Shown here piece by piece: positions 954 through 41,865 of a stretch of 64,000 nucleotides of DNA. The notes beneath the pieces are model-generated. The model had not been told where the DNA came from. It searched no databases and saw only the letters and a program-made list of their open reading frames with translations. The first letter of the stretch is position 1. The number at the start of each line of letters is the position of its first letter. The position numbers and the translations under genes were made by a program. This DNA comes from Candidatus Nomurabacteria bacterium (lineage in GTDB: Bacteria > Patescibacteriota > Minisyncoccia > Phycocordibacterales > UBA918), in assembly GCA_020632075.1 (NCBI GenBank), contig JACKGH010000001.1:42133-106132 (forward strand), read 5' to 3'.

Positions 954-3900
954 ATGAAAGAAGTTTTTACAGCAGCGGTGCCTGATTACACCGGAAAAAC
1001 TGAAGATGAACGTGCTTTTGCGGTTGCAGCTAACGACGATCCCTACGATCGCTATCTTGATGAACCATCTGACGCCGCTGAAGTTGTTCTCGCTACTCCA
1101 TCAGAGACAACAGAAGAATATTCTTCTGAGACTGAGGAAGTAGTCTCTCCAGCTATCGCCGATCTAAAAGATCAGGTAGACACTATCAATACTGCGGTGC
1201 AACACAATGAACGTATAGATGATGCAGACGCACAGGTAAAAGCCTTGGAGCGAGAAATTCACCGCATGGAACGTGAAGACGCTCGTGCTGCGGTCGAGGA
1301 AGAGATCAATGGTCTGAAGATGCAGATCGACGCGATCAATACTGCAGTGCAAGAAAACATGCGGGTTGAAAATGCTGACGAGCAGGTCGAAGCGCTCGAG
1401 CGAGAGATTCGTATGTTGCAAAGCAAAGCCGTTTTGCCGGAACTAGAAGCCCAAAAAGAAGAATTGCAAGAGGATCTGGACCCAAATTTCGTCGGACCTC
1501 AGTCGGTAGAAGCTGACTTAGCTGAACTCAATGCGCATATTGCCGAAGCTAAAGGTTGGCAAGAAAAATTTGATCAAAACACTCCTGAAGGAATCGCTAA
1601 AGCCAAAGTTGAACGTGAGCAACAAGAAGTAGCGGCTGCAGAGGCGGAGCAGGCGCGTCAAGAAGCTGAAGTGGCGCAGGCGGAGATTGAGCGACAAGAA
1701 CGATCAGAACAGCGGAGAGAATACTTGCGTTTGAAGCGCGATTTTAAGGCAGCTGAGAATGAATATTACGACGCGCTGTCAGAGCAATATCTCCTTAATG
1801 GCCATGTGAGCAATTTCCTTGGTCTTGGTCGAAAAGAAATGAGCACCAGCGTGCAGGAAGCCTATGACAAATTCATGCAAGCCAACAAGGACTTTTATGG
1901 CCTTGCACGCAGTAGCGGTTTGTACGACACGGTAGTCGATAAAGTTAATGCGCGTCGTGATAAGGCGGGTAAAGAAGAAGTGACTGTTGCGATGGTGGCG
2001 TCTGATCGGCATGTATTCAAGCCAGCGCAGGAGCGTCTTGATCGGCAGACCATGCATTTCGAGCGGATCGAGAAAGTGAAAGAGAAAGCCAAGGAACTGG
2101 TAAAGAAACGCCCGTATCTTGCAATTGCGGCTGGTCTCGGAGTAACGGCACTCAACCCTGCAACTGTTCTTATGGGAGCCGGTTTCGGTATTGCTACAAA
2201 ATTAGGTGGTGATTTCACATTTTCTCGCAAAGCCGAGCAAGATCAGTCTGGCGAAAGCGACCGTATCCTTGCCATGATGGATGACGCGCAAATGTCACTC
2301 GAAGATCTTGAGTTGTCAGAACAAGCCTTCTTCAAGGCAGCAAATCGAACGCAGCGCACCAAGACTGCCGTGAACTGGGCTGCGAAAGCTGCAGGAGTGG
2401 CTGCTGGTGGATACACTCGTACTACCGAAGCGGCTGGTCCGGTTTGGGAGCTCTTTGGTGGATCAGCTGCAGAACCGGCTACGGTGGGTGCTGAGGTGGC
2501 GCAACAAAAAGCTGAGTTAGCGATCGATCGAATTGCGGATAAATATACACAGTCACTTACGCACTTACGAGCAGGTGTATCGCCGGGTGCACACCTTGGT
2601 GAAAGGATGATCCAGGAAGATATGATAACACCACTCGCTAGAGCGATCGAAGGAGTGAGGGGTGTGAATCACGAAGAGGCAGTTAAGATGGCTTATGCCG
2701 AACTGGGTCGGTCACTTGAAACGTTTCAGAGCGAGCACCCAGGTGAACAACATGCTGGTCACATTCTCTTAGAACGCATGATGAGTAAGTCTGGAGCTGA
2801 AGCTGTGCCAAGTGGTCTTCCAACGGGAGGGAGGTCAGAAGCTGTAGCAGTTGGTCCTGATGGAAACATTCAGATCAAGGGAGCAGAAGCGCTTGGTGGT
2901 GGTCCTCAAGGCCCATCATTCCCAGGAGAAGAACGCATCAGACAGATGTATGGTGATGAAGCAGTTGAGTCACTCAAGAAGCAGTTGGCTGAAGATGGTC
3001 ACGCTGAATATTCATATCATAAAGAATACACAACTGGGGAGGCTGTTGCTGAGCCTGTTATGGCAGAGGGCACTGCTGCTGAAGCCAGTGCTACACCTGT
3101 CTTAGAAAGCGAGGTAACACCAGACATGGTGAGGGCGGTTGAGGGTGATGTGATGACGGCCGCAGAGTCGAATCCTGTTCAAGCTGAAGCATCTGCTGAA
3201 GTGCTGAAAGAAGTGGCCGATCCGCGTATTGCAAAGCTAGCGGCTGAGATCGCTAAAGATCCAACATACGAAGTTAAGTCTGGTGATACGGTTTGGAATA
3301 TTATCGAGAACAAGCTGGAAAAATACGACCTGTTCCAGAGCCTTGATAAGGGACAGCGGCTGTATCTCATCGATGCATTAAAGGATAAGATCGTGAAAGA
3401 TCCTTCACTCATTGGTATTGAAGGGGGTGATGCTAGCAAGATAGGTGTGGGCGATAAGCTTGATCTGTCTCGTTTATTTACTGAGGATATTGTTGGTTCT
3501 GCTTCGGAGAAAGCGACGAATCTCTCACCTGAGCAGATCGGGAATATTGAAGCGAATATGGGAAGACCGATGTCTCCTGTAGCTGAAGTTCCTGTCGTCG
3601 CAAAAGACCCTACGGTCTATGCTCAGCCAAAGATGGACGCGGGCGGTGGCGTTGGCTTCACTATTCCTGATGGCACCAAGGCTGCACAGGAAGTGGTATT
3701 TGAAAGTCCGTTTATAAATGATACGGCAATAGAAATGAAACGTTCTGGTGTTGCTGGTATTGCAGAAGCAATGCAAAAGAACTTATTGGCCCACGCAAAG
3801 GCTGGTCATATCAATTTACCACCAGAATTCACTGACACTAGGATTGAAAAACTGATCTTAGATCGAGTGCCAGAGCTTCGCGAGCAGAATCCTGATTCTG

Positions 3901-5270
3901 TCCTCTGGTTTCAGAAGACTGCCGATGCTCGCTTTAGTCCGGCTGAGTGGAAGCAGATGATCGGACACACAGATCCGAACGATCTACGAGCGGGGGATAA
4001 AGTGAACATTCAGCTCTTGATGGATCGTGTATTCAATAAGTTCTACGGAGCTGGTAGTGAGCAGGTTACCACCGTGACTCACGGAATGCCGGCAACAGAA
4101 ATAGCATCTTCGGCGCCGCAACCGACCGAACAAGTGACATATTCGCCAGACGGAAAGACACGCATCACAACCTATGATGACAGAGAAGGATTCTTCCAAA
4201 AAGTTGGCAGTAAATACGAGTATAGCTCAAGTGGCTTTGGTGATGCGCCTGCCGCGGTTGAGTCTGCGCGTTCAGCAGCTGCTCCAGAAGCAGCAGCTTC
4301 GCCCGAGTTGATGCGTAGTGCCGGCTTCAATCCAAACGACTTCATGCGCTCGTTCAATGAGGTGGGTAAGACCTGGACTCCGCCAGAAGGGGCAGAGTTG
4401 CGTAATCATATTCTCAAGATCATGGACTCAATGTCTGACCAGGCACGAGCGAAGTATATGCCTGATGCGAGTGGCTTAACGAAGATTGACAGTAACTATC
4501 TAGCAGTACACTGGCCTGAGGCGGCTGACCTGCCATTTGGGCCGGCTGGTGGTGCAAAGTATGCTCCAGAATATTGGCAATACGTTGGAATTCCAAGTGG
4601 TGATCCTGAAGACCTTCGGGGGGCAGTCATCGATAATGAAAAGCTGCTGCGATTAATGTTCCATCCTGACAGTATTCAGCCAGGGGAGTTTGATCCGAAT
4701 GTGCTTCCTCACGCGATCGAGGAAGCCGAGAGAGTGTCGGCTGAGGCTGCGCGCGAGCAGATGGCTCGCAATGCGTTCAAGATCGTTGATCGAGCTGCAG
4801 TACGTGATGAGCAGAATATGATCCACGGCATGCTCGCGCGCACCCACACCGGCATGTCGCCATTTGAAGCTAAAAGCGAAGCGTTGCGACTCAACACCAT
4901 CTTTGGTTATCAGCCACGGATGACGGCTGGTTTTGCAAATGAAGTCTTGCCAACCCCGGCCAGCATGAGCGAAAAGCAATTTATGAATGAGCTCTATCGT
5001 CAGACCTACGGTGCGTACGCAGAAGGTGATATCACTGTGCCAGCATATCGTATGTATTATCTCAGTCATCACGGTGGTGCTGGCAATCCAACTGCGATCA
5101 ATGCGTTTGTAGATAAGAACATGGGTATGCTGAATAAGTTGTCACCGCAGCAGTTGCAAGAACTTGGATTTAGCGCAGGTAAACTAGCGCCGCAGGCTGG
5201 CGACAAGATCCAGATCGGCAAAGTAGTAGAGCTGATCTTGAAAAACGCTGCTACTCGTATAAATAATTAA
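954..5270 (+). CDS. Large (1438 aa) hypothetical protein. It has an acidic coiled-coil N-terminus with internal ~45-aa repeats and one predicted TM segment (LAIAAGLGVTALNPATVLMGAGFGIA).
   Basis: Long uninterrupted ORF with codon usage matching its neighbours. The repeats VDTINTAVQHNERIDDADAQVKALEREIHRM and IDAINTAVQENMRVENADEQVEALEREIRML are seen, and the internal antisense ORFs are short. No recognisable catalytic motif. Confidence 0.65.
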   Translation: MKEVFTAAVPDYTGKTEDERAFAVAANDDPYDRYLDEPSDAAEVVLATPSETTEEYSSETEEVVSPAIADLKDQVDTINTAVQHNERIDDADAQVKALEREIHRMEREDARAAVEEEINGLKMQIDAINTAVQENMRVENADEQVEALEREIRMLQSKAVLPELEAQKEELQEDLDPNFVGPQSVEADLAELNAHIAEAKGWQEKFDQNTPEGIAKAKVEREQQEVAAAEAEQARQEAEVAQAEIERQERSEQRREYLRLKRDFKAAENEYYDALSEQYLLNGHVSNFLGLGRKEMSTSVQEAYDKFMQANKDFYGLARSSGLYDTVVDKVNARRDKAGKEEVTVAMVASDRHVFKPAQERLDRQTMHFERIEKVKEKAKELVKKRPYLAIAAGLGVTALNPATVLMGAGFGIATKLGGDFTFSRKAEQDQSGESDRILAMMDDAQMSLEDLELSEQAFFKAANRTQRTKTAVNWAAKAAGVAAGGYTRTTEAAGPVWELFGGSAAEPATVGAEVAQQKAELAIDRIADKYTQSLTHLRAGVSPGAHLGERMIQEDMITPLARAIEGVRGVNHEEAVKMAYAELGRSLETFQSEHPGEQHAGHILLERMMSKSGAEAVPSGLPTGGRSEAVAVGPDGNIQIKGAEALGGGPQGPSFPGEERIRQMYGDEAVESLKKQLAEDGHAEYSYHKEYTTGEAVAEPVMAEGTAAEASATPVLESEVTPDMVRAVEGDVMTAAESNPVQAEASAEVLKEVADPRIAKLAAEIAKDPTYEVKSGDTVWNIIENKLEKYDLFQSLDKGQRLYLIDALKDKIVKDPSLIGIEGGDASKIGVGDKLDLSRLFTEDIVGSASEKATNLSPEQIGNIEANMGRPMSPVAEVPVVAKDPTVYAQPKMDAGGGVGFTIPDGTKAAQEVVFESPFINDTAIEMKRSGVAGIAEAMQKNLLAHAKAGHINLPPEFTDTRIEKLILDRVPELREQNPDSVLWFQKTADARFSPAEWKQMIGHTDPNDLRAGDKVNIQLLMDRVFNKFYGAGSEQVTTVTHGMPATEIASSAPQPTEQVTYSPDGKTRITTYDDREGFFQKVGSKYEYSSSGFGDAPAAVESARSAAAPEAAASPELMRSAGFNPNDFMRSFNEVGKTWTPPEGAELRNHILKIMDSMSDQARAKYMPDASGLTKIDSNYLAVHWPEAADLPFGPAGGAKYAPEYWQYVGIPSGDPEDLRGAVIDNEKLLRLMFHPDSIQPGEFDPNVLPHAIEEAERVSAEAAREQMARNAFKIVDRAAVRDEQNMIHGMLARTHTGMSPFEAKSEALRLNTIFGYQPRMTAGFANEVLPTPASMSEKQFMNELYRQTYGAYAEGDITVPAYRMYYLSHHGGAGNPTAINAFVDKNMGMLNKLSPQQLQELGFSAGKLAPQAGDKIQIGKVVELILKNAATRINN

Positions 5271-14655: not shown

Positions 14656-14726
14656 TGCCCGATCGTCTAGTGGTAGGACGTTGGTTTCTGGCACCAAAAA
14701 CTGGGGTTCGAATCCCTGTCGGGCAG
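14656..14726 (+). tRNA. tRNA-Gln (anticodon CUG).
   Basis: The acceptor stem tgcccga pairs with tcgggca. A D-loop AGTGGTAG is present. The anticodon stem-loop is ttggt-ttCTGgc-accaa, and the T-arm carries GGTTCGAATCC. No encoded CCA. Confidence 0.75.
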
Positions 14727-14886
14727 CGAGCATGTGAGACAGACCGAGGTCTCAAAATGAGCTATGTTTATCAAGCTCATGAGAGAACCAGTCATGGACA
14801 CGAACCGCCAAAAACGGTTCGAGTCCAAGGTCTAAAATCACGATTCATCTATTCCGTAATTGCATACCTGCTGAGAGCAGTAGCCA

Positions 14887-15880: not shown

Positions 15881-15946
15881 AAGTTACTAGTATAAACGAC
15901 ATTCCCACTTTAGCTAAAGTGGGAATGTCGTCCAAGTGGGCAATGC

Positions 15947-16678: not shown

Positions 16679-16721
16679 AGAATAAAGATTAAGTATTTAT
16701 AACAGTGGTGGTGTTGACCTG

Positions 16722-16739
16722 ATACCCCCTAGGGGGTAT
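16722..16739. promoter_or_regulatory. CsoR-type operator: perfect 18-bp palindrome overlapping the putative csoR-copA promoter.
   Basis: ATACCCCCTAGGGGGTAT. It matches known CsoR operators such as B. subtilis copZA ATACCCTACGGGGGTAT. A TTGACC -35 lies directly upstream and TATTGT downstream. Confidence 0.7.
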
Positions 16740-16748
16740 TGTACGCTT

Positions 16749-17018
16749 ATGAAAGAATCAGTCAAGAAAGGAGTAGTGCGGCGGCTTAAGATCGCTGAAG
16801 GTCAGGTGCGTGGTCTTCAAAAGATGGTTGACGAAGATGCATACTGTATCGACATTATCACCCAAGCGTCGGCCGTTCGACACCTACTCAGTGCTGTGGA
16901 GGATCTGATGCTCGAAAATCACCTCGGGGAACATGTGGTCCACCAAATGCAAAAGGGGCAAGACAAAAAAGCTACTGAGGAGATCATGAAAGTATTTAAG
17001 GTAGGTAAAAAAAGATAG
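16749..17018 (+). CDS. csoR: CsoR/RcnR-family metal-sensing repressor.
   Basis: RLKIAEGQVRGLQKMVDEDAYCIDIITQASAV...H...H is the CsoR fold signature with Cys/His ligands. Confidence 0.75.
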   Translation: MKESVKKGVVRRLKIAEGQVRGLQKMVDEDAYCIDIITQASAVRHLLSAVEDLMLENHLGEHVVHQMQKGQDKKATEEIMKVFKVGKKR

Positions 17019-19066: not shown

Positions 19067-19486
19067 ATGAAATTTGGAAGACTGTGGAAGTTACATAAAG
19101 CCATCTGGGTAGTCATTACCGCTATGTTTGTATCTGTGCTCTTTCTCAGTCTCTTTCAGATGCCGATGGGTATGGATATGACCACGGGCGCTTCGGGGTG
19201 TCCTTTTATGTCTCACGGTGAGGAGGTCTTGTGTTCCATGAACACACTTGAACATCTGTCTGCCTGGCAGTCTGCTTTTACTGCTATCGTCCCTACCTTT
19301 GGTCTTTTAACACTTACGGTAGTGAGTATTTTGTTGCTGGCTTCAGTCGCCCCCAATCTACTTTCCACACCTCGCTTCAGTGAGCCATCATCGCCACGAT
19401 ATCTACGCGAGCAGATATACACCTTTAGCTACCGGCCGCTCCAAGAACTGTTTTCAAGCGGCATCCTACACCCGAAGCTTTTCTAG
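19067..19486 (+). CDS. Hypothetical membrane protein in the cop operon.
   Basis: Follows copA by 10 nt, carries 2-3 TM helices and a CPFMSH motif. A terminator hairpin follows at 19497-19525. Confidence 0.45.
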   Translation: MKFGRLWKLHKAIWVVITAMFVSVLFLSLFQMPMGMDMTTGASGCPFMSHGEEVLCSMNTLEHLSAWQSAFTAIVPTFGLLTLTVVSILLLASVAPNLLSTPRFSEPSSPRYLREQIYTFSYRPLQELFSSGILHPKLF

Positions 19487-19532
19487 TTAACTAATTCCAA
19501 CAACAGGCCTTTTTCTGTTGTTTTATTAGTTA

Positions 19533-20414
19533 ATGAGAAAAGTAACGATGAATAACAAAACTATAGTAATTGCCGTGTTTGTGCTTCTCCTTGGTGGACT
19601 AGCCTACTACACCGTTGGCTACAACCGCCACACGGACTCGAGCGACAGTCACGAAGCTATGATGGGTGCCCACGACGATGGCACCATCGAACCATATGAA
19701 ATCTACCCAGGTGATGTTGCTGAAAAAATTAAGAACAATGACAACATTGTCTTGCTTGACGTGCGAACACCTGAAGAATATGCCGAAAATCACCTCAAGG
19801 GTGCACTACTGCTTCCGGTACAAGAACTCTCACAGCAGTCACTGAATGCAATCGGACTCGGCGAAAACGCAAAAGACAAGGAGATCTACCTCTACTGTCG
19901 TAGCGGCAGTCGGAGTCAGACGGCGTATAACATCATGCGCTCGCTCGGGTACACCAACATTAAAAGTGTGGCTGGTGGTATGATCCACTGGGAAGAAGAC
20001 AACTACCCATTTACTGAGTCAGGTGTATACGAAGGAAATCAAATGATGAACGGTGAGACTATGATGCCGGACGATGCTACTGGCCCTCACATTACCTTTA
20101 ATCAAACCAGTCACGACTTTGGGGTTATTCCGCAATACGGTGGCAAGGTTGAAACGACCTTCACGGTCACAAATACCGGCAAAGAGACGTTACAGATTGG
20201 CGACCTAACGACGAGCTGCAGCTGTACGAGCGCAATGATCGCGGAAACCTCTATTGAACCCGGTAAAAGTACAACTCTGACAGTGGTGTTCGATCCAAAC
20301 TTCCACGAGGAACCGCTTGATGTCTTTAAACGTACCGTCTTTATTCCTACCAACGACCCCCGAAATCCTGAAGCAGAAGTCTCAATCACTGTCGATATTG
20401 CAGAGGGTCAGTAA
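19533..20414 (+). CDS. Rhodanese-domain protein with a C-terminal DUF1573-like beta-sandwich domain.
   Basis: N-terminal TM, a rhodanese core LLDVRTPEEYAENHLKGA...YCRSGSRS (active-site Cys), then FGVIPQYGGKVETTFTVTNTGKETLQIGDLTTSCSCT. Confidence 0.65.
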   Translation: MRKVTMNNKTIVIAVFVLLLGGLAYYTVGYNRHTDSSDSHEAMMGAHDDGTIEPYEIYPGDVAEKIKNNDNIVLLDVRTPEEYAENHLKGALLLPVQELSQQSLNAIGLGENAKDKEIYLYCRSGSRSQTAYNIMRSLGYTNIKSVAGGMIHWEEDNYPFTESGVYEGNQMMNGETMMPDDATGPHITFNQTSHDFGVIPQYGGKVETTFTVTNTGKETLQIGDLTTSCSCTSAMIAETSIEPGKSTTLTVVFDPNFHEEPLDVFKRTVFIPTNDPRNPEAEVSITVDIAEGQ

Positions 20415-20420
20415 TCATTA

Positions 20421-20921
20421 ATGAAAATAATACCTATGAACAAATACACTATTGGTGCGATCTTGCTGGGAACCATTCTGTTGCTGGTAATGGTCTCGAC
20501 CCAGAGCAACAACGCTGGACAAGCAGCCACCAAACAATCAGCCACATCTATCATCACTGTTACGGGAGACAAATATGACTTCGGTACAATTGATATCTTT
20601 GGCGGCAAAGTACATACAACTTACATGCTCAAAAATGAAGGACCCGATGATGTCACTATCACCAACGCCCAAACGAGCTGTATGTGTACCGAAGGCGAAA
20701 TAGACGGTTATACATTCGGTATGCATGGTAGTAACGTGCACAACATTGTCATCCCGGCCGGTGCAGAAAAAGAAGTGACCGCCACCTTCGACCCACTCGC
20801 TCATGGTCCGAATGGTACCGGTAAGATCACTCGAGAATTGGTCCTTAAGACCAACTCCACTGCTTCACCGGAAGTACGAATGATGTTCAATGGAGACGTC
20901 GCTAAAAATGAAAACAATTAA
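20421..20921 (+). CDS. DUF1573-like secreted protein.
   Basis: Signal/TM followed by YDFGTIDIFGGKVHTTYMLKNEGPDDVTITNAQTSCMCT, a paralog of the upstream C-terminal domain. Confidence 0.55.
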   Translation: MKIIPMNKYTIGAILLGTILLLVMVSTQSNNAGQAATKQSATSIITVTGDKYDFGTIDIFGGKVHTTYMLKNEGPDDVTITNAQTSCMCTEGEIDGYTFGMHGSNVHNIVIPAGAEKEVTATFDPLAHGPNGTGKITRELVLKTNSTASPEVRMMFNGDVAKNENN

Positions 20922-21321
20922 TCAGAAAAAACCTATGCAATACGGCTATTCAAAACAAGTAGCGCTACCCTTTACGGAAGCGGTGACAAAAACTAAAGAC
21001 GCACTGGCAGTGGAAGGTTTCGGGGTGCTCACTGAGATTAATGTTGCTGCCACGCTGAAGAAAAAACTCGATATTAATTTCAATCAGTACGTCATATTTG
21101 GTGCGTGTAACCCGGCGTTTGCCCACCAAGCACTCGAGGCAGAACCAGAGATTGGTCTACTACTTCCGTGCAACGTAATTGTTTACGAGCGCGACGGCAG
21201 TGTGCATGTCTCCGCCATTCTGCCAACGGTCGCCATGCAAATGGTTAAAAACGACTCATTACACGAAATCGCAACTGCAGTTGAAGCAAAGCTTAAAACT
21301 GTTGTTGACGCAATCGCATAA
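20908..21321 (+). CDS. DUF302-family protein.
   Basis: YGYSKQVALPFTEAVTKTKDALAVEGFGVLTEINVAATLKK...ILPTVAMQM is typical of DUF302. Confidence 0.55.
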   Translation: MKTINQKKPMQYGYSKQVALPFTEAVTKTKDALAVEGFGVLTEINVAATLKKKLDINFNQYVIFGACNPAFAHQALEAEPEIGLLLPCNVIVYERDGSVHVSAILPTVAMQMVKNDSLHEIATAVEAKLKTVVDAIA

Positions 21322-21326
21322 ACCTA

Positions 21327-22090
21327 TGAATGAAGAACAACAAACAACCAAAGTTACCGCTATGCCAGTAAGGACAAATTACCTCATTCCGCTTTCGATC
21401 GTAATCGCCGGGGCACTCATTGGGGCTGGACTTTATTTCAGTGGCAGCGCCACGTCATCAACTGTTCAAGCAAATAAAGCAGCTGTGGCTACTCCGCAAC
21501 CAGCCGTTGAGCAAGGTTCACCAGAGAAAGTAAATCCAGTTACCGCAACCGATCATATCAAAGGTTCACCTGATGCAGCGGTAAAGATTGTTGAGTATTC
21601 GGACTTTGAATGTCCATTCTGCAAACGTTTCCACGACACCATGAATCAGATAATGGAACAGTATGGCAATTCGGATGACGTAGCGTGGGTATACCGCCAC
21701 TTTCCACTTGACCAACTACATAGCAAAGCGCGACCAGTTGCAGTGGCATCTGAGTGTGCTAATGAGCAAGGTGGCAACGATACGTTCTGGAAATTTACTG
21801 ATCGTTACTTTGCACTTACCAAGTCGAATAATCAGACCGATATTCAAACCGTAATCCCGCAGATTGTAAATGAACTTGGTCTTAATACCACTGCTTTTCA
21901 AAGTTGTTTCGAAAGTGGAAAGTATGATGACCATATCCAGGCCGATGTACAGAACGCTATTGATACTGGTGGGCGTGGCACCCCATGGAGTATTGTCATT
22001 GCTCCAAATGGAAAGACCTTTCCACTGAATGGAGCGCTGCCACTCGAAGCCGTAAAGCAATTGATCGAACTGGCAAAGAAAGAACAATAA
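21327..22090 (+). CDS. DsbA-like thioredoxin-fold thiol:disulfide oxidoreductase, membrane-anchored.
   Basis: N-terminal TM, then KIVEYSDFECPFCKRFH containing a CxxC. It is a paralog of 58953..59711. Confidence 0.75.
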
Positions 22091-31798: not shown

Positions 31799-32305
31799 AT
31801 GACATTCGACCCACAATTAATCTTATTATTCATCAACACAGTCGCTGTCATTTTTGTAATCGCACTGTTTTTAACTAAGAATGATACTGCCAGAAACGGT
31901 GACGCTGGTGATATTTACGAGAGGATTAAGAATGATATCAAATTCACATTCGAACCAATGGTCGATATACCACTTGGTGTCGAGGAAATCGTCGACCTTG
32001 CGGTAGAAGTGTGGCGAATGGAACAAAGGTTGTCTAAAGCGTCCGAAAATATACCAGAGATACACCAACGCAGTCTTTCAAATTCAATAAATCGTCTAAA
32101 GAGTTACTTAAATAAGTACGATGTAGAAATCCATGACTATACAGGACAAAAATATAACGATGGATTAAATTTTGACATTCTCTCCAGAGAGCAGGACCCG
32201 ACTCTTGAATCACCAATCGTAAAAGAAACAGTTGAGCCTACCATTACATGCAGAGGTAAGGTGGTGAAGAGGGCAAAAATCATATTGGCATCAAATCAAA
32301 AATAG
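31799..32305 (+). CDS. Hypothetical N-terminally membrane-anchored protein; first gene of the cargo operon.
   Basis: TM LILLFINTVAVIFVIALFL. The next gene starts 3 nt after its stop. Confidence 0.5.
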   Translation: MTFDPQLILLFINTVAVIFVIALFLTKNDTARNGDAGDIYERIKNDIKFTFEPMVDIPLGVEEIVDLAVEVWRMEQRLSKASENIPEIHQRSLSNSINRLKSYLNKYDVEIHDYTGQKYNDGLNFDILSREQDPTLESPIVKETVEPTITCRGKVVKRAKIILASNQK

Positions 32306-32307
32306 TT

Positions 32308-34800
32308 ATGGCAACTCGAAATATACAAATTGGAATTGATTTAGGTACCACAAACTCAGAGGTGGCAATTAATAATGGATCTGCTATTGAAATAATCAAG
32401 AATGGTTTTAATGATGAGTATACTCCTTCAGTATTTGGTGTAGATAAATCAAAAAATAAAATCGTGGGTAAAAAAGCCTATGAAAGATTGTTTAAATATT
32501 CATCAACCGAAGAACTAAATAACAACAAAGCTGAGGTTAAGAGAATCATGGGAACCTCAGAGACAGTACGTTTTGATAGAACAAATGAAGAATTACAACC
32601 TGAAGAGATTTCCGCAGAGATTTTGAAGTCACTAAAAGAAGACATTTTAAGAAAGTATAGTGACTTTGAGACTACGTCTGCTGTCATCACGATACCCGCT
32701 CACTTTTCTGTTGTTCAAGCTGAAGCAACCAAGAGAGCTGGAAATATAGCTGGATTTAATTATGTTGTTTTGCTCCAAGAACCAATCGCAGCCGCAATCG
32801 GTTACGGTTTTATGAATGCTAAGAACGAAAACTGGTTAGTATATGATCTTGGCGGCGGCACATTTGATGTTGCATTAATTTCTGCAAAAGATGGAAATCT
32901 TACTGTTGTTGCTCAAAACGGTGACAACTTCTTAGGAGGAAAAGACTTCGATAAATTGATAATCGATAAAGTCTTAATTCCAAAAATCAAAGAAGAATTC
33001 AACGTACCCGACCTAAAAGATGATCAAGTCGTTTTCTCTAAACTCAAGAATCTAGCAGAGACAGCAAAAATTGAACTAACCTCATCTGATAAGACTAATA
33101 TCCAAGTAGAAAACATTGGTGAGGATATGAATGGAAATGAAATTTATCTATCCATTGATTTCACTCGGTCAGAATTTGAGAAGCTTATCAAACCTCTAGT
33201 AGAACGAACAATAAAACTGAGTCAGGAAACAATTAAAGAATCTGGCATTAAACAGAGTTCAATCAATAAAATCATACTTGTTGGCGGACCTACATTAATT
33301 CCTTATATAAAAGATCGCCTTGAACGAGACCTAAAGATTGAGGTTGATACCAGTGTCGATCCTCTAACAATTGTTGCAAGAGGGGCTTGTATCTACGGAG
33401 TCAGTCAACAAATACCTGAAGAATTTCTGGAAAAAAGAGCTGATGCCGCTGAATCAATGTCGGTAAAATTACACTTCGACTCACTGTCATCTGATATTGA
33501 GACAACCATTAGTGGTGTAGTTGAGGATTTGAGGGACTCGGAAGAAGAGTATTATATTCAAATCCAAAGCGACTCAGGTACCTATAGTGGCCCAAAGATT
33601 AAAGTTAAAGGAGGTAAATTTTTTGACACTATAACCCTCGACAAAAATAAAACTAACCTATTCTGGATTTATCTTTTCGATTCTGAGGGAAACACTATTC
33701 AGATTGACCCTGACTCCTTTACTATTATTCACGGATTGTCTATATCTGGTGCGCCAATCCCTCATTCTGTTGGGGTTGGAGTTGTTAAGAAGGATTTTAA
33801 GACAGGTATTGCTACCGAAGTATTTGATAAATACTTTTCAAAAAATAGCACCTTGCCACTCGAAGAGACAAAAATCTTTAAGACTCTCAGAAAGCTTAAA
33901 AAGGGCGACAAAGATAACGCTCTACCTATCAATGTATATGAGGGAGAGTCTGACAGACAGGACAGAAATCAAAGAATCTGCAGCCTCAAGCTAACTGGTG
34001 AGCAGATACCCTATGATCTTCCTGAAGGAACTCCTGTTGAAATTACCATAAAGATTAATGAATCTCGCGAAGTCTCAGTTAATGCTTACATTGAGTCAAT
34101 TGATCTTTCTGTAGATGCCCGGGCAACTATTCATGATGAAGAACTGGACGTTGAGCAAATGAAGTCAGAGCTTGAACTACAAAGAAATCGAATTTCGAAT
34201 GCCAAGGAAAACTGCTCGGATGCTGAACGTAGAGATCTGGAAAACACATACGAATCCGTAGACGATAGTTTGCAAAGAGCTGAGGACGATCAGGATGAGA
34301 AAAGAAAAGCTAATAAGCAACTCAAAGATTTAAAGATTCAACTTGACTCCATCGAGCGAGACAAAGAAATGCCACAGCTAACTCGTGAATTTCGTGATGG
34401 CCTAATGAATGCAGACGAAACAATTAGAGAACTTGGTGATAAGGAAGAATACAATCAGCACAAAGAATTACTTGAAGCATTAAAGGCTGAAGGTGAAATT
34501 GCAATTGAAAACAACGACAAACATCTATTGGCTCGAGTGAATGAACAAATTGATGAGCTTAAGCAAAAGATTGTCTTTTCAAATCCTGCTGCATGGGCCT
34601 ATCTTTTCCAAAAGATAGTGTCAGAAAATAAGAATTTTATTAGCGACAAAGAAGCTGAATATTTCATCAACAAGGGACTTAGGTCAATTGAGGTTGGTGA
34701 TGTCGAAGAACTAAAGCGTTGCGTTAGAGGATTGCTGTTGTTGCTACCCCCTGAACAACAGCACATGATTCAAAGTTCAATGTCAGGTATAACTTATTAA
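32308..34800 (+). CDS. Non-canonical Hsp70 (830 aa): a complete actin-like NBD, a long insert, a degenerate SBD-beta and a helical C-terminus.
   Basis: IGIDLGTTNSEVA (phosphate 1), DLGGGTFDVAL (phosphate 2), ILVGGPTLIPYIKD (adenosine motif), and the SBD-like INVYEGESDRQDRNQRICSLKLTGEQIPYDLPEGTPVEITIKINESREVSVNA. Confidence 0.8.
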   Translation: MATRNIQIGIDLGTTNSEVAINNGSAIEIIKNGFNDEYTPSVFGVDKSKNKIVGKKAYERLFKYSSTEELNNNKAEVKRIMGTSETVRFDRTNEELQPEEISAEILKSLKEDILRKYSDFETTSAVITIPAHFSVVQAEATKRAGNIAGFNYVVLLQEPIAAAIGYGFMNAKNENWLVYDLGGGTFDVALISAKDGNLTVVAQNGDNFLGGKDFDKLIIDKVLIPKIKEEFNVPDLKDDQVVFSKLKNLAETAKIELTSSDKTNIQVENIGEDMNGNEIYLSIDFTRSEFEKLIKPLVERTIKLSQETIKESGIKQSSINKIILVGGPTLIPYIKDRLERDLKIEVDTSVDPLTIVARGACIYGVSQQIPEEFLEKRADAAESMSVKLHFDSLSSDIETTISGVVEDLRDSEEEYYIQIQSDSGTYSGPKIKVKGGKFFDTITLDKNKTNLFWIYLFDSEGNTIQIDPDSFTIIHGLSISGAPIPHSVGVGVVKKDFKTGIATEVFDKYFSKNSTLPLEETKIFKTLRKLKKGDKDNALPINVYEGESDRQDRNQRICSLKLTGEQIPYDLPEGTPVEITIKINESREVSVNAYIESIDLSVDARATIHDEELDVEQMKSELELQRNRISNAKENCSDAERRDLENTYESVDDSLQRAEDDQDEKRKANKQLKDLKIQLDSIERDKEMPQLTREFRDGLMNADETIRELGDKEEYNQHKELLEALKAEGEIAIENNDKHLLARVNEQIDELKQKIVFSNPAAWAYLFQKIVSENKNFISDKEAEYFINKGLRSIEVGDVEELKRCVRGLLLLLPPEQQHMIQSSMSGITY

Positions 34801-34808
34801 AATAGAAT

Positions 34809-36269
34809 ATGAATCTCTTAAAAGATAATGCATACCACATATTAGGCTTAGATACTTCAGCAAGCCAAAAAGAGATCTCCAAGAGGTCAAAAGAAATATT
34901 AACGCGCCTAAAAATTGACGATGTACCAGAGTACGAAATTGACTTAAATTTCTTTTCAAATTTTAGAACTGAGAATTCGGTAAAACTGGCACAATCTAAT
35001 TTATCGAATCCTAAGAAATTGATAAAAGAATACTTCTTTTGGTTTCAGGTTGCAGATAGCGTAGACGAAGAAGCTGTTGATTTTTTCAGAAAAGGACAAT
35101 TTGGTGAAGCTGCAAAAATATGGAAGGAGCATAGCCAAGGAGATACCATAAAGTCATTACTCTATAAAAAGAATTTGGCGATTTTAGTTACAATTCTCTT
35201 GTACAAATCAAAAGATGATGACCTCCTTAACAAGTCAGTCTCATTGTGGAGTGAATTAATAGGGTCTGATAAATTTTGGAACGGGTTTTCAAAAGTGTAT
35301 AAGTTACATGATGAATTGGGTTCTGACTCAGAAGTTATTAGTGATTTCAAAAGTAAGGTTGCCGATTATCTTTCTGACATTTATGCAGAGTTATCTTCAA
35401 TTCATCAGGACAAAGACTTTGTTACTTTGTTCGCAAAAAATTTTGGACTTAAGGGTGAAAAGATGGAGGCTGATGTATTGAACCCAATCTATAAAGTGAT
35501 AAATGACGCCGTTGAAGAATTGGATGCACTTGGCGTGAGTGATGACGGGGTGTTAGATCAAAAAGAAACCGCAGAGATTAAGCGACTTATTGGCATCATC
35601 CAATCTGAACTAAATAAGCTAATAGATCTTGGTTTGTACGATGATAGTAAGATTAAACTTGTACGTGACAGAGCTGCTGCTACCCTAAGAAAACTAAGTA
35701 TTGAGGTAAACAACAACTTAAATGAGGCTGATATTGCATTAGGTTTAAGTAAAATTGCCGATAGCATTTCAGGAACAACCAGCTTTAAGAGCAAGGTCCA
35801 GCAAGACATTAAAACTCTTGAAGAAAATCAAGCCTATAAAGCAAAGGAAGAAAAGCAAAAGGCTATTATTGATCCAATTCTGGCCACTTTTAAAGCTGGC
35901 GACTCAGAGAAGGCACTTCAGACAATTAATGCTTACATCTATAACGAAAGTACTGACCCTGATTTAAAAGAAACGTTATTAGAAATTAAAAAAGTTATTG
36001 AGGAACGTATCGTCCAACATGGTAAACCAGTAAAAAGTGCCCCCACCTTGTTTACTCTTAACGGTTTCGGTACAAAAATATATGGTGACACTTTGTATGT
36101 CACACTTTTGTTCATACCAGTAATTCCTCTCTCTCGATACTCCTTGGTTAATAATGGTGACAATTACAGTTTCCAGGGGAAGTTGGAATTGCGAGAGTGG
36201 CAAAAGATTTGGAAGGTGGTGGGTTTGATCGCGGTCGGTATTATCGTGCTTATGATGTTTAGCAGCTAG
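34809..36269 (+). CDS. J-like domain protein lacking the HPD motif, with a C-terminal transmembrane anchor.
   Basis: N-terminal AYHILGLDTSASQKEISKRSKEILTRLKIDDVPE aligns with DnaJ YYEILGV...EIRKAYKRLAMKYHPD, with HPD replaced by IDD. The C-terminal TM is WKVVGLIAVGIIVLMMF. Confidence 0.6.
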   Translation: MNLLKDNAYHILGLDTSASQKEISKRSKEILTRLKIDDVPEYEIDLNFFSNFRTENSVKLAQSNLSNPKKLIKEYFFWFQVADSVDEEAVDFFRKGQFGEAAKIWKEHSQGDTIKSLLYKKNLAILVTILLYKSKDDDLLNKSVSLWSELIGSDKFWNGFSKVYKLHDELGSDSEVISDFKSKVADYLSDIYAELSSIHQDKDFVTLFAKNFGLKGEKMEADVLNPIYKVINDAVEELDALGVSDDGVLDQKETAEIKRLIGIIQSELNKLIDLGLYDDSKIKLVRDRAAATLRKLSIEVNNNLNEADIALGLSKIADSISGTTSFKSKVQQDIKTLEENQAYKAKEEKQKAIIDPILATFKAGDSEKALQTINAYIYNESTDPDLKETLLEIKKVIEERIVQHGKPVKSAPTLFTLNGFGTKIYGDTLYVTLLFIPVIPLSRYSLVNNGDNYSFQGKLELREWQKIWKVVGLIAVGIIVLMMFSS

Positions 36270-36273
36270 GCTT

Positions 36274-36867
36274 ATGAATGATCACTTAGACTTCAACACA
36301 GATTTTTTAAATAATCCTGTTTCTGGTAAGAATCAGGGTCCATCTAATGATAACCAACCCAAAAATGGTGGGGGTAAAAAAGGTTGGATTATAGCAGCAG
36401 TCATCTTCGGTGTCCTTATTGTTATTGGTGCGATGGAAGATTCTGGTTCAACAGGTTCAACTTATACACCAACAACCAACTCGACGTACAGCAACAACAC
36501 GAACACTTCTGCTGATCATTCATTAGTATTTGATGGGCAAACTTTTAGATGTTCTGATTATCACTATGATAAAGCGATGGCATTGAGGCCAGACGCAACA
36601 CTGAGCGCACAAATAGATTCAGAGAGTGCAGCTCTAGATTTGCGTATTAGTAGTCTAGACTCAGAAGCGGCTAGGATAGACGCAATGTATGTTGATGAGT
36701 ATAGCCAGTGGTCGATTGATAACTACAACGCAGCTGTTGATGCATATAATGTTAAGAAAAATAGACTACAAGCCGATATTGATAGTTGGAATCTAAAAAA
36801 CACTTCTTTTAATAGAAAAATTGATGCTTACAACAATTACCTAGATACTAACTGCCGACCACAATAA
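36274..36867 (+). CDS. Single-pass membrane protein with an extracytoplasmic domain (197 aa).
   Basis: TM WIIAAVIFGVLIVIGAM. A Thr/Ser/Asn-rich linker follows, with repeated AYN/YN motifs. Confidence 0.5.
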   Translation: MNDHLDFNTDFLNNPVSGKNQGPSNDNQPKNGGGKKGWIIAAVIFGVLIVIGAMEDSGSTGSTYTPTTNSTYSNNTNTSADHSLVFDGQTFRCSDYHYDKAMALRPDATLSAQIDSESAALDLRISSLDSEAARIDAMYVDEYSQWSIDNYNAAVDAYNVKKNRLQADIDSWNLKNTSFNRKIDAYNNYLDTNCRPQ

Positions 36868-36870
36868 ATT

Positions 36871-37926
36871 ATGTCAATTCAAACAAAACCAATTCTACAT
36901 AATGGCTTTGAAATCAGAGAAGGCCTAAAAGTAAAGAGTCGTATCGACAAGGTATTTTTCACTGAGATTTATCACCTTGATAACGACACATACTTCTACC
37001 TCTTCCTAAATCTCAATCCTAACGAAATTATCGATAAGCGAGGGCGGTATGAATTAGTGAGGATTAATATCTCTTCTAAGGAGTGGATTGGAGCTATTGT
37101 AAAAAGTAATACTAACCCCGCTTCTGTCATTGAGGAGTTAACTACTCTGCGAGGATTTGATCAGATTGCTGGAATGCAAGAACTAAAGAATCTATTGATT
37201 GCAGAAGTGATAAATCCGCTACGAGATCCTGCTAGATTTGAAAAATTCAAAGTGTCTATACCTAACGGAATTTTGCTTTACGGTCCTCCGGGATGCGGAA
37301 AAACCTTCATCGTAAGAAAACTTGCGGAAGAGCTGGGATATAACTTTTTTGAAGTAAAACACTCAGACCTTGCAACGCCTTTTATACATGGATCAGTAGG
37401 TAATATTGGTAAGGTTTTTGAAACCGCAAAACAGAATTCACCAGCTGTTGTATTTTTTGATGAAATCAGTGGTCTTGTACCAAACCGTCAAAATTTGAAT
37501 GATTCATCTTCACACAAAGAGGAAGAGGTTAACGAGTTTTTGATTCAGCTTAACGATGCTGCTGATAATAATATTCTAGTTGTAGGTGCAACGAACTATA
37601 TTGATCGAATTGACCCAGCGATATTGAGGCCAGGACGAATGGATAAAAAGATTCATGTCCCACCACCTGACGCAGAAGCCAGAAAAGAACTATTCAAGCT
37701 TGGTCTTTCAGGTCGTCCGCACGATGAGAATATCGACTTTGAACACCTAGCTAAAATAACCGATGGCTACAGTAGCGCTGACATTATTGAGGGTATAGTT
37801 GAAGGAGCTGCTCGTCTGGCTGCGAACATGGATAAACAAGAAATTGATCAGGAACTACTAGAAAAAGAAGCAGCTAAACTTAAACCTGTAGAAGAAGAAA
37901 AGCCGAGATTTGGTTTCGGTGCGTAA
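36871..37926 (+). CDS. Classical-clade AAA+ ATPase (CDC48/FtsH/Vps4-like module) with an approximately 100-aa N-domain.
   Basis: Walker A GILLYGPPGCGKTF, Walker B VVFFDEISGL, and a second region of homology with Arg fingers GATNYIDRIDPAILRPGRMDKKIHV. Confidence 0.8.
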   Translation: MSIQTKPILHNGFEIREGLKVKSRIDKVFFTEIYHLDNDTYFYLFLNLNPNEIIDKRGRYELVRINISSKEWIGAIVKSNTNPASVIEELTTLRGFDQIAGMQELKNLLIAEVINPLRDPARFEKFKVSIPNGILLYGPPGCGKTFIVRKLAEELGYNFFEVKHSDLATPFIHGSVGNIGKVFETAKQNSPAVVFFDEISGLVPNRQNLNDSSSHKEEEVNEFLIQLNDAADNNILVVGATNYIDRIDPAILRPGRMDKKIHVPPPDAEARKELFKLGLSGRPHDENIDFEHLAKITDGYSSADIIEGIVEGAARLAANMDKQEIDQELLEKEAAKLKPVEEEKPRFGFGA

Positions 37927-37937
37927 TTTAGTAATCA

Positions 37938-38600
37938 ATGGAAATCGACTCAAAAGAAATCATTCTGCAATTGTTGAAAGGGATGTGGGAAATGAAGTCA
38001 CTATACCTCATGCTGTTTGGAGTGGTTGTCTTGGCCTTAATTGCAAGAATCCTTATGGATTTGATGAGCCGACAAAGTCAAATTAAGTGGTTTCTAGGCA
38101 AGCAAAAAGTTCAGGACTTGCAAAAGCTCACACCTTCACAATTTGAGGAATATATCGCCGAACTATTTAAATCACTTGGCTATCAAGCAGTTGTAACTGG
38201 CGGTAAGGGTGATGGAGGAGTCGATGTTGAAGCAGAAAAAGACGGCATCAAACACTACATTCAATGCAAAAAATTCATCACATCAAAAGTACCCGTTGGA
38301 GCAGTGCGTGACTTCTACGGTGCTATTGCAGATAGGATTGATGGTGGAAAGGGTTATTTCATCACTACAAATGTTTTTACACTTGATGCTGAACATTTTG
38401 CAGAAGATAAACCAATTGAACTAGTTGATAAGTTCAAGTTGATGGAATACATGCACATGGCGAATGTGGAAGTTCCAGAGTCCACTCCCGTCGTGTGTCC
38501 AAAGTGCGGATCCGAGCTTATTCGTCGCAGTGGTAAATACGGTCCCTTTATGGGCTGTAGTACGTATCCAAAGTGTGACTACACAAAGAAACTCGCATAA
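37938..38600 (+). CDS. Membrane-anchored Mrr-type (type IV restriction-like) PD-(D/E)XK nuclease fused to a topoisomerase-type C4 zinc ribbon.
   Basis: N-terminal TM LYLMLFGVVVLALIARILM; Mrr_cat-like FEEYIAELFKSLGYQAVVTGGKGDGGVDVEAEKDGIKHYIQCKKF; and C-terminal CPKCGSELIRRSGKYGPFMGCSTYPKCDY. Confidence 0.65.
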   Translation: MEIDSKEIILQLLKGMWEMKSLYLMLFGVVVLALIARILMDLMSRQSQIKWFLGKQKVQDLQKLTPSQFEEYIAELFKSLGYQAVVTGGKGDGGVDVEAEKDGIKHYIQCKKFITSKVPVGAVRDFYGAIADRIDGGKGYFITTNVFTLDAEHFAEDKPIELVDKFKLMEYMHMANVEVPESTPVVCPKCGSELIRRSGKYGPFMGCSTYPKCDYTKKLA

Positions 38601-38606
38601 GGTTAT

Positions 38607-39677
38607 ATGGATAAAGAAGTCGCATATAAGCCAAACACAACAGCCTGTGAGGATCTACCATATCCAATAGTATTATATCCCGGTTTCTACGGCTCCTTTT
38701 TCGCATTTAAGCAGAATAAAAAAGCAAAACCTCACTTTTGTTCATGTGCGTACGAAGCAATAGAAAACTACATTAGAATCAGACAGTCATCTGAGATTCC
38801 ATTGAACTCATACCCTGATCGTATGTACTTATTGGATTCCCACGATTTTCCAAAATCTGTTGTCCAGACTTTGATGCAATCCAACATACCTGACGATCAG
38901 GTGTTGGCGAATCTTAACTTTGCTGACAAGTTATGTCATGAGTGCAATTTGCAAACTCCTTCGTATCGCTATTGTGTAGAGATGTACGGAGGTGCATTCA
39001 AGCAAAATTATGGTTGGTACATAGGAAAACAAGCATACGAGTGGGGTTTTGATAGGAGTAAAAGTAAGTTGTTGATCGACAGTTTGTGTCCTGAAGATCT
39101 TCTTGAGTTGGTCAATGATGAATCCTTCCAGTATGGTAGAAAGAGACGAAGAGAAATTGCAGATAAAACGTTTGAGTTCGATAGAGATTTTGCAAACATT
39201 TCAGATGTAGATCGACAAGAATACAGTGCTTTGTTCCAAGAAGCTCGAAATATTGATAAAAGTCTCTCAAAACACTACAGAAAGATCAACAATGTTGTTG
39301 AGAACGAAGTGCGAAGGAAATTTGGTCATAAGAATGTTGGTGAAGCATGGACTAGTGAAACAATTCTCTACTACATAGTAAAAAAACTATATCCTGAACA
39401 TACAATCCACCGTCACTATCGTCCTGACTTTTTAGATGGTCTAGAATTAGATATTTACATTGAGGAGCTGAATATAGGTATTGAGTACCAAGGCATTCAG
39501 CACTACAAGCCAGTAAAACACTGGGGTGGTGAAGATGCGTTAAAAAAGTTGCAACAAAGAGATAAAAAGAAGAGGAATATTTGCAAAAAGATTGGAATTC
39601 CACTTATCTATTTTGAACATGATGAGGGATTGAGCGATAGTCTAGTTGTAGCGAAGTTAAGTGATTATGAAAGTTAG
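38607..39677 (+). CDS. Hypothetical protein with a C-terminal DUF559/Vsr-like PD-(D/E)XK endonuclease domain.
   Basis: The C-terminus HRHYRPDFLDGLELDIYIEELNIGIEYQGIQHY...RDKKKRNICKKIGIPLIYFEHDE aligns with the DUF559 core (YIVDF...LVIELDGGQHY...RD..L...G..VLRF.N.E). Confidence 0.5.
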   Translation: MDKEVAYKPNTTACEDLPYPIVLYPGFYGSFFAFKQNKKAKPHFCSCAYEAIENYIRIRQSSEIPLNSYPDRMYLLDSHDFPKSVVQTLMQSNIPDDQVLANLNFADKLCHECNLQTPSYRYCVEMYGGAFKQNYGWYIGKQAYEWGFDRSKSKLLIDSLCPEDLLELVNDESFQYGRKRRREIADKTFEFDRDFANISDVDRQEYSALFQEARNIDKSLSKHYRKINNVVENEVRRKFGHKNVGEAWTSETILYYIVKKLYPEHTIHRHYRPDFLDGLELDIYIEELNIGIEYQGIQHYKPVKHWGGEDALKKLQQRDKKKRNICKKIGIPLIYFEHDEGLSDSLVVAKLSDYES

Positions 39678-40239
39678 AATAAAGAAATTGATACAAAGAT
39701 TAAAAACTGACAAGAAACTGGCAGGTCTTTTTTTTCTATATGTTGCTACGGTGGTCGTTGTTTCTTATTTATTTATTCAGTGGCCTGAATATGCAAACAA
39801 GACTACCTACATTCTTTTCCTAATTTCTCTAATGCTGGTCACGTTGTTTACTTGGTCAATGGCAGCGTTGGCTATCTTCAGGTCTCTTCTAGTTGTTGGT
39901 GCAGGACTATCACTAGTGTTGTTCATTGCTCAATCGTACTGCGCCTTACCTCTTAACGAACAGGTTGCAGACGACTCTCTACAGAGCTTGATTGGAATAA
40001 GTGTTTTGTTTATAGGCGTGATGTTTTTTAATCGACTGTACCGCGAGCTGTTTGGTAATCCAGAATCGAAGCGTGAATTTGATAAGCTTGGTGCACTTAA
40101 AGTCTTTCGGGAAGCAAACAAAGGTAAGGATTCTGTTTTAATCCTTGTTCTTTACGCTTCCTTTATGGGTCTTATTCTAGGTCAGTTGTTCCAAGTTTTG
40201 TTCCCGATTTTTATTAACCTTTGTGTTTATCAACCATGA
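39667..40239 (+). CDS. Multi-pass membrane protein (about 5 TM).
   Basis: Overlaps the upstream stop; has five hydrophobic helices. Confidence 0.5.
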   Translation: MKVRIKKLIQRLKTDKKLAGLFFLYVATVVVVSYLFIQWPEYANKTTYILFLISLMLVTLFTWSMAALAIFRSLLVVGAGLSLVLFIAQSYCALPLNEQVADDSLQSLIGISVLFIGVMFFNRLYRELFGNPESKREFDKLGALKVFREANKGKDSVLILVLYASFMGLILGQLFQVLFPIFINLCVYQP

Positions 40240-40883: not shown

Positions 40884-40897
40884 TCTATGGATTTTGT

Positions 40898-41845: not shown

Positions 41846-41865
41846 TGAGCATACAATGAGGACTA

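Follow-up and report, generated by a model that had tools for sequence, protein, structure and literature searches.

Whether a perfect palindrome lying in front of a small regulatory gene is the switch of a copper-export system, and whether copper is really the signal it answers to, is the question raised by a 64,000-nucleotide stretch of DNA from Candidatus Nomurabacteria bacterium (contig JACKGH010000001.1, positions 42,133 to 106,132), the whole of which is called here the window. The palindrome occurs in a promoter-like sequence upstream of a gene encoding a CsoR/RcnR-family repressor, itself followed by a gene for a copper-type P1B ATPase, and an earlier note on this DNA had described it as a clean, autoregulated copper-sensing switch governing csoR and copA. 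The analysis reported here leads us to consider, with good confidence, that the CsoR-family repressor encoded directly downstream has the palindrome as its operator and would be released from it by copper. The positions of all the features discussed are collected in Table 1.

The repeat search resolves ATACCCCCTAGGGGGTAT into two 9-bp arms (16722-16730 and 16731-16739) which are 100% complementary and meet with a gap of 0 nt, in full agreement with the perfect 18-bp inverted repeat announced in the earlier note. Within the surrounding 16700-16760 stretch, which reads GGTGTTGACCTGATACCCCCTAGGGGGTATTGTACGCTTATGAAAG, the element displays the succession TAC-CCCC-TA-GGGG-GTA with 10 bp from TAC to GTA, as expected of a type-2 CsoR operator according to the definition of Tan, Vijgenboom & Worrall (PMC3902906). 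It occurs a single time in the 64-kb window, even when up to 3 mismatches are tolerated, and none of 100 dinucleotide shuffles yielded a match. A perfect 18-bp palindrome is in itself not very rare (0.2 expected per window, 4 observed), and what makes the element more than a product of chance is its specific sequence, the place it occupies and the fact that 77 related promoters have kept it. Strict, loose and type-1 pattern searches gave no credible further operator in the 64-kb window, where no type-1-like site was found; a loose match at 8095 was rejected, being devoid of the G/C tracts. No occurrence of the exact palindrome core was found in the literature.

With respect to the promoter, the scan pairs TTGACC with TATTGT across a 17-nt spacer, with 9 of the 12 positions agreeing with the consensus. 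The placement of the palindrome between these two hexamers, as previously proposed, holds in that it fills the spacer, but it also overlaps the first three nucleotides of the -10 hexamer. Its distance from csoR, given before as 10 nt, is 9 nt to the ATG at 16749, a start codon located 6 nt past the -10 hexamer. No Shine-Dalgarno (SD) motif and no upstream in-frame start were found ahead of the csoR start, the first base of which, A16749, is 7 nt downstream of the -10. The ATG similarly lies 6-10 nt beyond the -10 in 58 of 72 related loci, and the genome is poor in SD sequences, an SD-like motif preceding only 8 of the 53 open reading frames (ORFs) of at least 120 amino acids in the window. Owing to this combination of a conserved short spacing, a missing SD motif and an SD-poor genome, the csoR mRNA is probably leaderless. 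TATACT/TATAAT-like boxes are also visible some 6-10 nt before the start codon of several other genes, e.g., at 12871, 15880 (minus strand), 24423, 48580 and 60303-61379, and the sequence thus suggests that leaderless mRNAs are common in the source organism.

The comparison with relatives, based on 80 genome loci (L001-L080) and 5 closer contigs (L081-L085), supports this arrangement. Homologues of the regulator come almost entirely from metagenome assemblies of the Patescibacteria, also known as CPR (candidate phyla radiation), including Saccharibacteria, Paceibacterota, Kaiserbacteria, Campbellbacteria and others. A strict TAC3-7..G3-7TAT site is located upstream of the homologue in 72 of 81 sequences; among the remaining nine, eight possess variants with one mismatch and one (L011) is cut at the contig end. 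All loci taken together, about 580 kb of DNA, contain 78 strict sites, 77 of which are at a csoR promoter. Although left free in the search pattern, the base before TAC is an A in 97% of the sites and the base after GTA is a T in 100%. The spacing varies between TAC-X9-GTA (44 sites) and TAC-X10-GTA (34 sites), the exact core of the window being the commonest variant with 19 occurrences out of 78. A -35 hexamer of the TTGAC type is found at a spacing of 15-18 nt in most related loci (55 of 72 score at least 5/6), followed by a TATnnT-like -10 that begins in the TAT of the right arm. Relatives with an 89-97% identical regulator have kept everything from the -35 to the ATG except for one spacer base, while elsewhere in the intergenic region their sequences have diverged. 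In 76 of the 85 related loci an ATPase homologue is located no more than 4 kb from the regulator. Two sites stand apart in this collection. The sole strict site located off a csoR promoter is TACCCTATGAGGGTA (L065, 1353-1367), 2.6 kb upstream of that locus's own operator; and at about 3955-3975 of L041, upstream of a homologue with a Cys-His-His sensor, the site ATACAGGGGGGGTGTAT contains a single G7 tract and, this tract being unbroken, looks like an RcnR-style type-1 site rather than a type-2 site. One of the closer contigs (L083, 4960-5464) shows a multicopper-oxidase (Cu-oxidase_2) fragment downstream of the regulator, after small unknown proteins, in place of an ATPase. The literature on CsoR in Patescibacteria was found to be limited to incidental co-mentions.

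The repressor belongs to the family PF02583 (Trns_repr_metal; E 8e-25; 87.5 bits, the cut-off being 22.8), the match spanning the three-helix domain at residues 6-84 of 89, and matches ten solved CsoR/RcnR family members. The best of them are copper-sensing CsoRs, namely 4m1p from Geobacillus (7e-15), 4adz from Streptomyces (4e-13), 3aai from Thermus (8e-11) and 2hh7 from Mycobacterium (2e-10). In an ungapped alignment (offset +3) with the Mycobacterium tuberculosis CsoR 2hh7, residues Y32, C33, H58 and E78 of the repressor correspond to Y35, C36, H61 and E81; the repressor was also aligned to 4m1p and 3aai. It therefore possesses the X-position Cys and Y-position His of the copper sensors of the x-C-H-C type, together with the second-shell Tyr and Glu which, in characterised members, couple Cu(I) binding to DNA release (PMC11672702). 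These four residues and H62 are invariant among 29 close homologues. Taking into account H62 and the CopB-type ATPase gene starting 2 nt downstream, the protein shows the features of the x-C-H-H subclass, whose known members (Thermus thermophilus CsoR; cluster 17 of the sequence similarity network) are regarded as copper sensors from their gene neighbourhood (PMC8643695). Residues R54 and Q81, needed for DNA binding in Streptomyces lividans CsoR, are retained as R12 and Q39. According to the fingerprints that distinguish the other members of the family (PMC8643695), three identities were considered and rejected: RcnR, by the lack of a W-position His3 (the N-terminus is MKESV, without any His), of a type-1 operator and of a sufficient NCBIfam score (42.6 bits against a cut-off of 138); CstR, by a single Cys (C33) where two reactive Cys per site are required and by the presence of the Y-position His58; and FrmR, by the lack of Pro2 and by an NCBIfam score of 33.4 against a cut-off of 133. 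Copper specificity is likely for the repressor. No second CsoR paralogue was found in the 64-kb window.

The pump differs from the copA announced in the earlier note. Its motifs IACPHALG (the transmembrane metal site), GYNIIAIP and MSLST, along with 15 His among the first 60 residues, correspond to the CPH, GYN(X)4P, MSXST and His-rich N-terminus of the P1B-3 or CopB group, whereas the CPC, MxxSS and N-terminal CxxC/HMA features of the P1B-1 or CopA group are lacking: no C..C occurs in the first 150 residues and no HMA domain is detected by Pfam. The definitions of both groups are those of PMC5552934, in which the CPH class is reported as having been originally assigned to Cu(II). Since the ATPase gene starts 2 nt past the csoR stop, both genes are probably co-transcribed and translationally coupled. 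A 139-residue membrane protein with Met/Cys/His motifs, encoded just downstream, would be a possible third member of the operon, and the hairpin that follows likely ends the csoR-copB-orf139 transcription unit. No second P-type ATPase occurs in the 64-kb window.

A further promoter, overlooked in the csoR-copA picture, which was otherwise right in placing the operator over the csoR promoter, faces the first one on the opposite strand. With a 16-nt spacer and 10 of 12 consensus positions, it is the best promoter-like match of the region, stronger than the csoR promoter, and its predicted start (about 16731) falls within the operator. It points at a divergent gene, 70 bp from csoR, encoding a protein of 243 residues whose extracytoplasmic region is rich in Met, Gly and His. 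Homologues of this gene are divergent from csoR in L081, L082 and L085, with weaker matches in L009 and L034, the former also on the divergent strand. The minus-strand -10 TACAAT is kept in the three first-named loci, where the divergent gene is present, and the minus-strand -35, AGTCAA in the plus-strand reading, is kept in the four sequences possessing the gene. By contrast L083, with a regulator 85% identical, lacks the divergent gene and has another gene as its upstream neighbour; it retains the plus-strand promoter and the operator but has lost both minus-strand hexamers, which read CACAAT and AATCAA (TTGATT). This single contrast tentatively suggests a genuine minus-strand promoter in the loci that possess the divergent gene. 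Across the loci as a whole, calls of upstream minus-strand ORFs are unreliable, and TATAAT-like boxes are quasi-palindromic, so that a minus-strand -10 often arises for free. Because this stronger, face-to-face promoter shares the operator with that of csoR and is directed towards the gene of a Met/His-rich membrane protein, the operator probably controls transcription in both directions, the 243-residue protein being probably its second target, with a putative role in copper binding.

Table 1. Predicted regulatory elements and genes of the copper locus (window coordinates)
Feature	Position	Strand	Basis and remarks
Divergent gene, 243 amino acids	15947..16678	-	SHOCT 6.6e-10; signal peptide, one transmembrane helix, C-terminal SHOCT
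-35 hexamer TTGACC, csoR promoter	16714..16719	+	Promoter scan; related loci
Operator ATACCCCCTAGGGGGTAT	16722..16739	.	Type-2 CsoR-family site, TAC-X10-GTA; C5 and G5 tracts split by TA
-10 hexamer TATTGT, csoR promoter	16737..16742	+	Promoter scan; related loci; first 3 bases, TAT, shared with the end of the right operator arm
-10 hexamer TACAAT, divergent promoter	16738..16743	-	Promoter scan; overlaps operator by 2 nt
CsoR/RcnR-family repressor, 89 amino acids	16749..17018	+	PF02583; sensor C33-H58-H62 (x-C-H-H); second shell Y32, E78
-35 hexamer TTGACT, divergent promoter	16760..16765	-	Promoter scan; inside first codons of csoR
P1B-3 (CopB-type) copper ATPase, 678 amino acids	17021..19057	+	TIGR01511 1.5e-169; motif match
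Membrane protein, 139 amino acids, Met/Cys/His motifs	19067..19486	+	No Pfam match; homologues adjoin ATPase in L001, L004, L005
Terminator-like hairpin	19499..19522	+	9-pair stem, T-rich tail; consensus match only

Among the characterised systems, the operator most closely resembles those of S. lividans, whose CsoR binds in vitro to TACCCCCTAGGGGTA sites, including GTACCCCCTAGGGGTATAC and TATACCCCCTAGGGGTAA (PMC3902906). The copZA1, copZA2 and csoR operators of that species (TACCCCCTAGGGGTA) are almost identical to the window site (TACCCCCTAGGGGGTA), which has one extra G; the resemblance to characterised CsoR operators put forward earlier is thus well founded for Streptomyces, whereas the Bacillus subtilis copZA string quoted in its support could not be confirmed. 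In both organisms a TAC/GTA inverted repeat encloses two G/C tracts split by TA, and such a site precedes both csoR and the operon of the copper ATPase. In S. lividans any base swap in TAC or GTA abolishes the binding of CsoR, a half-site is not bound, and Cu(I)-CsoR does not bind (PMC3902906). The spacing differs, however, X9 in S. lividans as against the X10 of the perfect, even palindrome of the window, as do the proteins: a C-H-C sensor with R57 and a long N-terminal extension in S. lividans, a C-H-H sensor with Ile15 and without such an extension, a CopB-type pump and no CopZ found in the window. The CsoR box of Corynebacterium glutamicum reads ATACCCCnnnGGGGTAT (PMC5057107).

With regard to the protein, the CsoR of T. 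thermophilus HB8 (TTHA1719; 3aai) is the characterised x-C-H-H member and shares the Cys-His-His sensor, with a His at the position of H62, a short RRLL-type α1 motif without the second Arg, and an operon of the autoregulated type containing a copper ATPase, autoregulation being a prediction in the case of the window. An N-terminal His5 has moreover been ascribed to the Thermus protein, giving an H-C-H-H set (PMC5057107). Its operator CCCCACCCCACCTGGGGTGGGG (PMC10318464) is a different G/C-rich sequence without the TAC/GTA arms, and its operon, copZ-csoR-copA, encodes a CPC-containing CopA instead of a CPH pump of the CopB type. The His substitution in the window repressor may have arisen independently of Thermus, because the repressor is closer to the C-H-C CsoR of Geobacillus (7e-15) than to 3aai (8e-11). 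For the two-directional arrangement, a counterpart exists in the csoR-cueA divergon of Bradyrhizobium liaoningense (PMC5057107), where bidirectional promoters overlap around a single CsoR box of the same type, TATACCCnnnnnGGGTATA, through which both csoR and a copper-resistance gene in divergent orientation are controlled, in the same way as is predicted for the window; there the regulator is C-H-C and the ATPase gene is the divergent one, whereas in the window the ATPase gene is co-oriented with csoR and the divergent gene encodes a Met/His-rich SHOCT protein. From its residues and motifs, the window system is thus best described as a putative combination of a Thermus-like sensor site, a Streptomyces/Corynebacterium-like operator and a CopB-type pump.

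According to the mechanism that we propose, the metal-free repressor would bind the TAC...GTA inverted repeat and the C5/G5 tracts, probably as two tetramers per type-2 site by analogy with characterised CsoRs. The bound site would cover positions -27 to -10 of the csoR promoter and approximately -8 to +10 of the face-to-face minus-strand promoter and, as the operator spans both, RNA polymerase would be kept off both promoters. Rising cytoplasmic copper would place the metal at the inter-subunit site Cys33-His58-His62, His58 being coupled via Tyr32 and Glu78 to the DNA-binding face, and the repressor would leave the DNA. This release would allow the expression of a leaderless csoR-copB(-orf139) transcript and of the divergent Met/His-rich membrane protein, and the products of the former would export the copper and reset the repressor. 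The core of the earlier proposal, a CsoR-type operator overlapping the csoR promoter, is well supported by the PF02583 gene, the S. lividans-like site, the 77 conserved loci and the linkage to an ATPase in 76 of 85. Its copper-sensing character draws support from the same family assignment, from the copper-CsoR relatives and from the ATPase linkage, but the sensor is an x-C-H-H and not a C-H-C site.

Several observations weigh against this interpretation. The promoter-like matches of the region number 6 as compared with 6.0 expected from shuffles, the hexamers being consensus matches only, and the case for the divergent promoter is made of four sequences that keep the gene, one from the window and three from relatives, and of one counter-example. 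In the RLXR motif used for DNA binding, the second Arg (R57 of the S. lividans protein) is replaced by Ile15, and the R57A mutant of S. lividans CsoR gave no binding signal (PMC3902906); we nevertheless expect DNA binding to be retained in the Ile15 variant, since the operator is conserved upstream of genes encoding the same variant. No CopZ-like chaperone with a GMxCxxC motif was found in the 64-kb window. The operator of the persulfide sensor CstR, ATATACCCTTATGGGGTATAT, is almost identical to that of the window (PMC8643695), and the DNA site alone cannot for this reason identify the inducer, which has to be deduced from the residues of the protein and from the neighbouring genes. Finally, the Z-position Cys of x-C-H-C sensors (C65 in M. 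tuberculosis) is replaced by His62. The T. thermophilus CsoR, with the same substitution, reportedly responds to Cu(I), Cu(II), Zn and Cd (PMC5057107), and a 2024 review states that the Cu(I) specificity of x-C-H-H sensors still awaits an unequivocal evaluation and that promiscuity may be raised by the substitution (PMC11672702). Because a His takes the place of the second Cu(I) cysteine, copper specificity is less certain than the word clean had implied.

It follows from this last point that the same operator and the same repressor could serve a sensor which is not specific for copper, the locus then being a broad metal-stress switch rather than a Cu(I) switch, for which Cu(II), Ni(II), Co(II), Zn(II), Cd(II) or Ag(I) would be the main or additional signals. 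We hold this alternative to be unlikely, although the behaviour of the Thermus protein speaks in its favour. The Z-position His62 is also a residue of the H-C-H-H set of the Ni/Co sensor RcnR (PMC8643695), and the E. coli RcnR, a member of the same protein family, likewise has Cys-His-His at positions X, Y and Z; the partner pump, in addition, belongs to the CPH, His-rich class first assigned to Cu(II) (PMC5552934). However, E. coli RcnR also needs His3 at the W position and tandem type-1 sites (TACT-G6-N-AGTA) upstream of rcnA, neither of which exists in the window, where the repressor has no W-position His or N-terminal extension and the operator is of type 2, and the RcnR and FrmR scores remain far under the cut-offs. 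Moreover, wherever an ATPase motif could be recognised, the linked transporter is of a copper type, P1B-1 or P1B-3, and no RcnA-like or Co/Ni-type pump was seen.

A sensor of something other than a metal, either a persulfide (CstR) or a formaldehyde (FrmR) sensor acting on a look-alike operator, appears very unlikely. The near identity of the CstR operators and the presence, 0.5-3 kb downstream of the ATPase gene, of rhodanese-domain, DUF302 and DsbA-like genes, which would hint at sulfur chemistry and which recur near some related loci, would fit such a sensor. The repressor has nonetheless a single C33 where CstR has two Cys per site, keeps the Y-position His and lacks the Pro2 of FrmR, while csoR directly precedes a copper ATPase gene and the rhodanese gene lies beyond a terminator-like site that sets it apart from the operon. 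As for the idea that the palindrome is an RNA hairpin (terminator or attenuator) or a functionless chance palindrome, it is hardly credible: once transcribed it would give an 8-bp GC-rich hairpin (centroid -12.4 kcal/mol), and two of the other three perfect 9+9 palindromes of the window do sit within longer terminator-like hairpins, but neither strand shows a U-run after it, it was not called in the terminator scan, its fold z-score of -0.61 is not unusual, no Rfam family matched at E <=1 except a chance miRNA match elsewhere, the predicted starts leave it untranscribed on the plus strand and half transcribed on the minus strand, and chance would not keep it at a fixed place in the promoter of 77 loci whose flanks are otherwise unrelated.

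A few other features of the window deserve mention. Downstream of the operon, a cluster at 19533-22090 comprises genes for a rhodanese+DUF1573 protein, a DUF1573 protein, a DUF302 protein and a DsbA-like thioredoxin; homologues of each recur near 4-7 related csoR loci of the C-H-H type, and in L085 a DUF302 gene adjoins the SHOCT gene, so that the cluster may belong to a wider copper/redox island. A perfect 13+13 palindrome (ATTCCCACTTTAG/CTAAAGTGGGAAT, 15901-15926) is found just past the stop codon of the divergent SHOCT gene; a TATACT box comes after it, 9 nt before the ATG of a PAP2 gene, an arrangement that probably represents a terminator plus a leaderless promoter. Another perfect palindrome, of 21+21 nt (GGCTGCGGAATTTCCCGTAGG/CCTACGGGAAATTCCGCAGCC, 781-822), occurs about 130 nt upstream of a 1438-residue ORF (954-5270), which itself contains a perfect 9+9 palindrome, CAGAAGAATATTCTTCTG, at 1111. 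The sole tRNA of the window, tRNA-Gln(CUG) (14656-14727), sits between a gene for a histidine phosphatase and the DUF2127/PAP2 genes, the latter being located ahead of the copper locus. The G+C content drops to 0.36-0.39 at 32001-42000, as compared with 0.45-0.53 in the rest of the window, and this block may be horizontally acquired or functionally distinct.

Considered at the level of the family, the related regulators are evenly divided at the Z position: among 81 sequences, 40 are C-H-H, 40 are C-H-C and 1 is C-H-Q. They form two clades which share the same operator. The C-H-C regulators adjoin ATPases of the CPC/CxxC, CopA type in 38 of 39 cases, and in the C-H-H clade, to which the window repressor belongs, a CPH, His-rich ATPase of the CopB type is adjacent in 14 cases and occurs within the locus in 6 more, with CPC pumps in 8-9. 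One C-H-C regulator (L063), located inside the C-H-H clade, is accompanied by a CPH pump. It is conceivable, although we consider it doubtful, that the exchange of Cys for His in the sensor and of CPC for CPH in the pump, with a His-rich tail replacing the CxxC domain, reflects two modules using one type of operator, the His-type module being devoted to a different copper species or to a broader range of metals. As this pattern follows the two protein clades, the pairing of sensor and pump may simply reflect shared ancestry. If the idea were true, the His-type module could sense and export Cu(II), for instance, or copper in a cytoplasm poor in thiols and devoid of CopZ, and would act through one operator common to a pair of face-to-face promoters, of which one is leaderless.

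As copper switches, CsoR operators belong to the textbooks, and little is changed in principle by the addition of a new one. The interest of the locus lies rather in offering a sequence-level regulatory prediction for the uncultivated Patescibacteria, in which regulation is almost unstudied, and in a motif, ATAC3-7..G3-7TAT, that would mark the copper regulon across at least 77 of their genomes. It also illustrates a compact promoter design in an SD-poor genome, with the right arm of the operator doubling as the beginning of the -10 hexamer and a start codon that is probably leaderless. The association of an x-C-H-H sensor with a CPH pump may provide natural material for understanding the effect of the second Cys-to-His exchange on the metal selectivity of the family.

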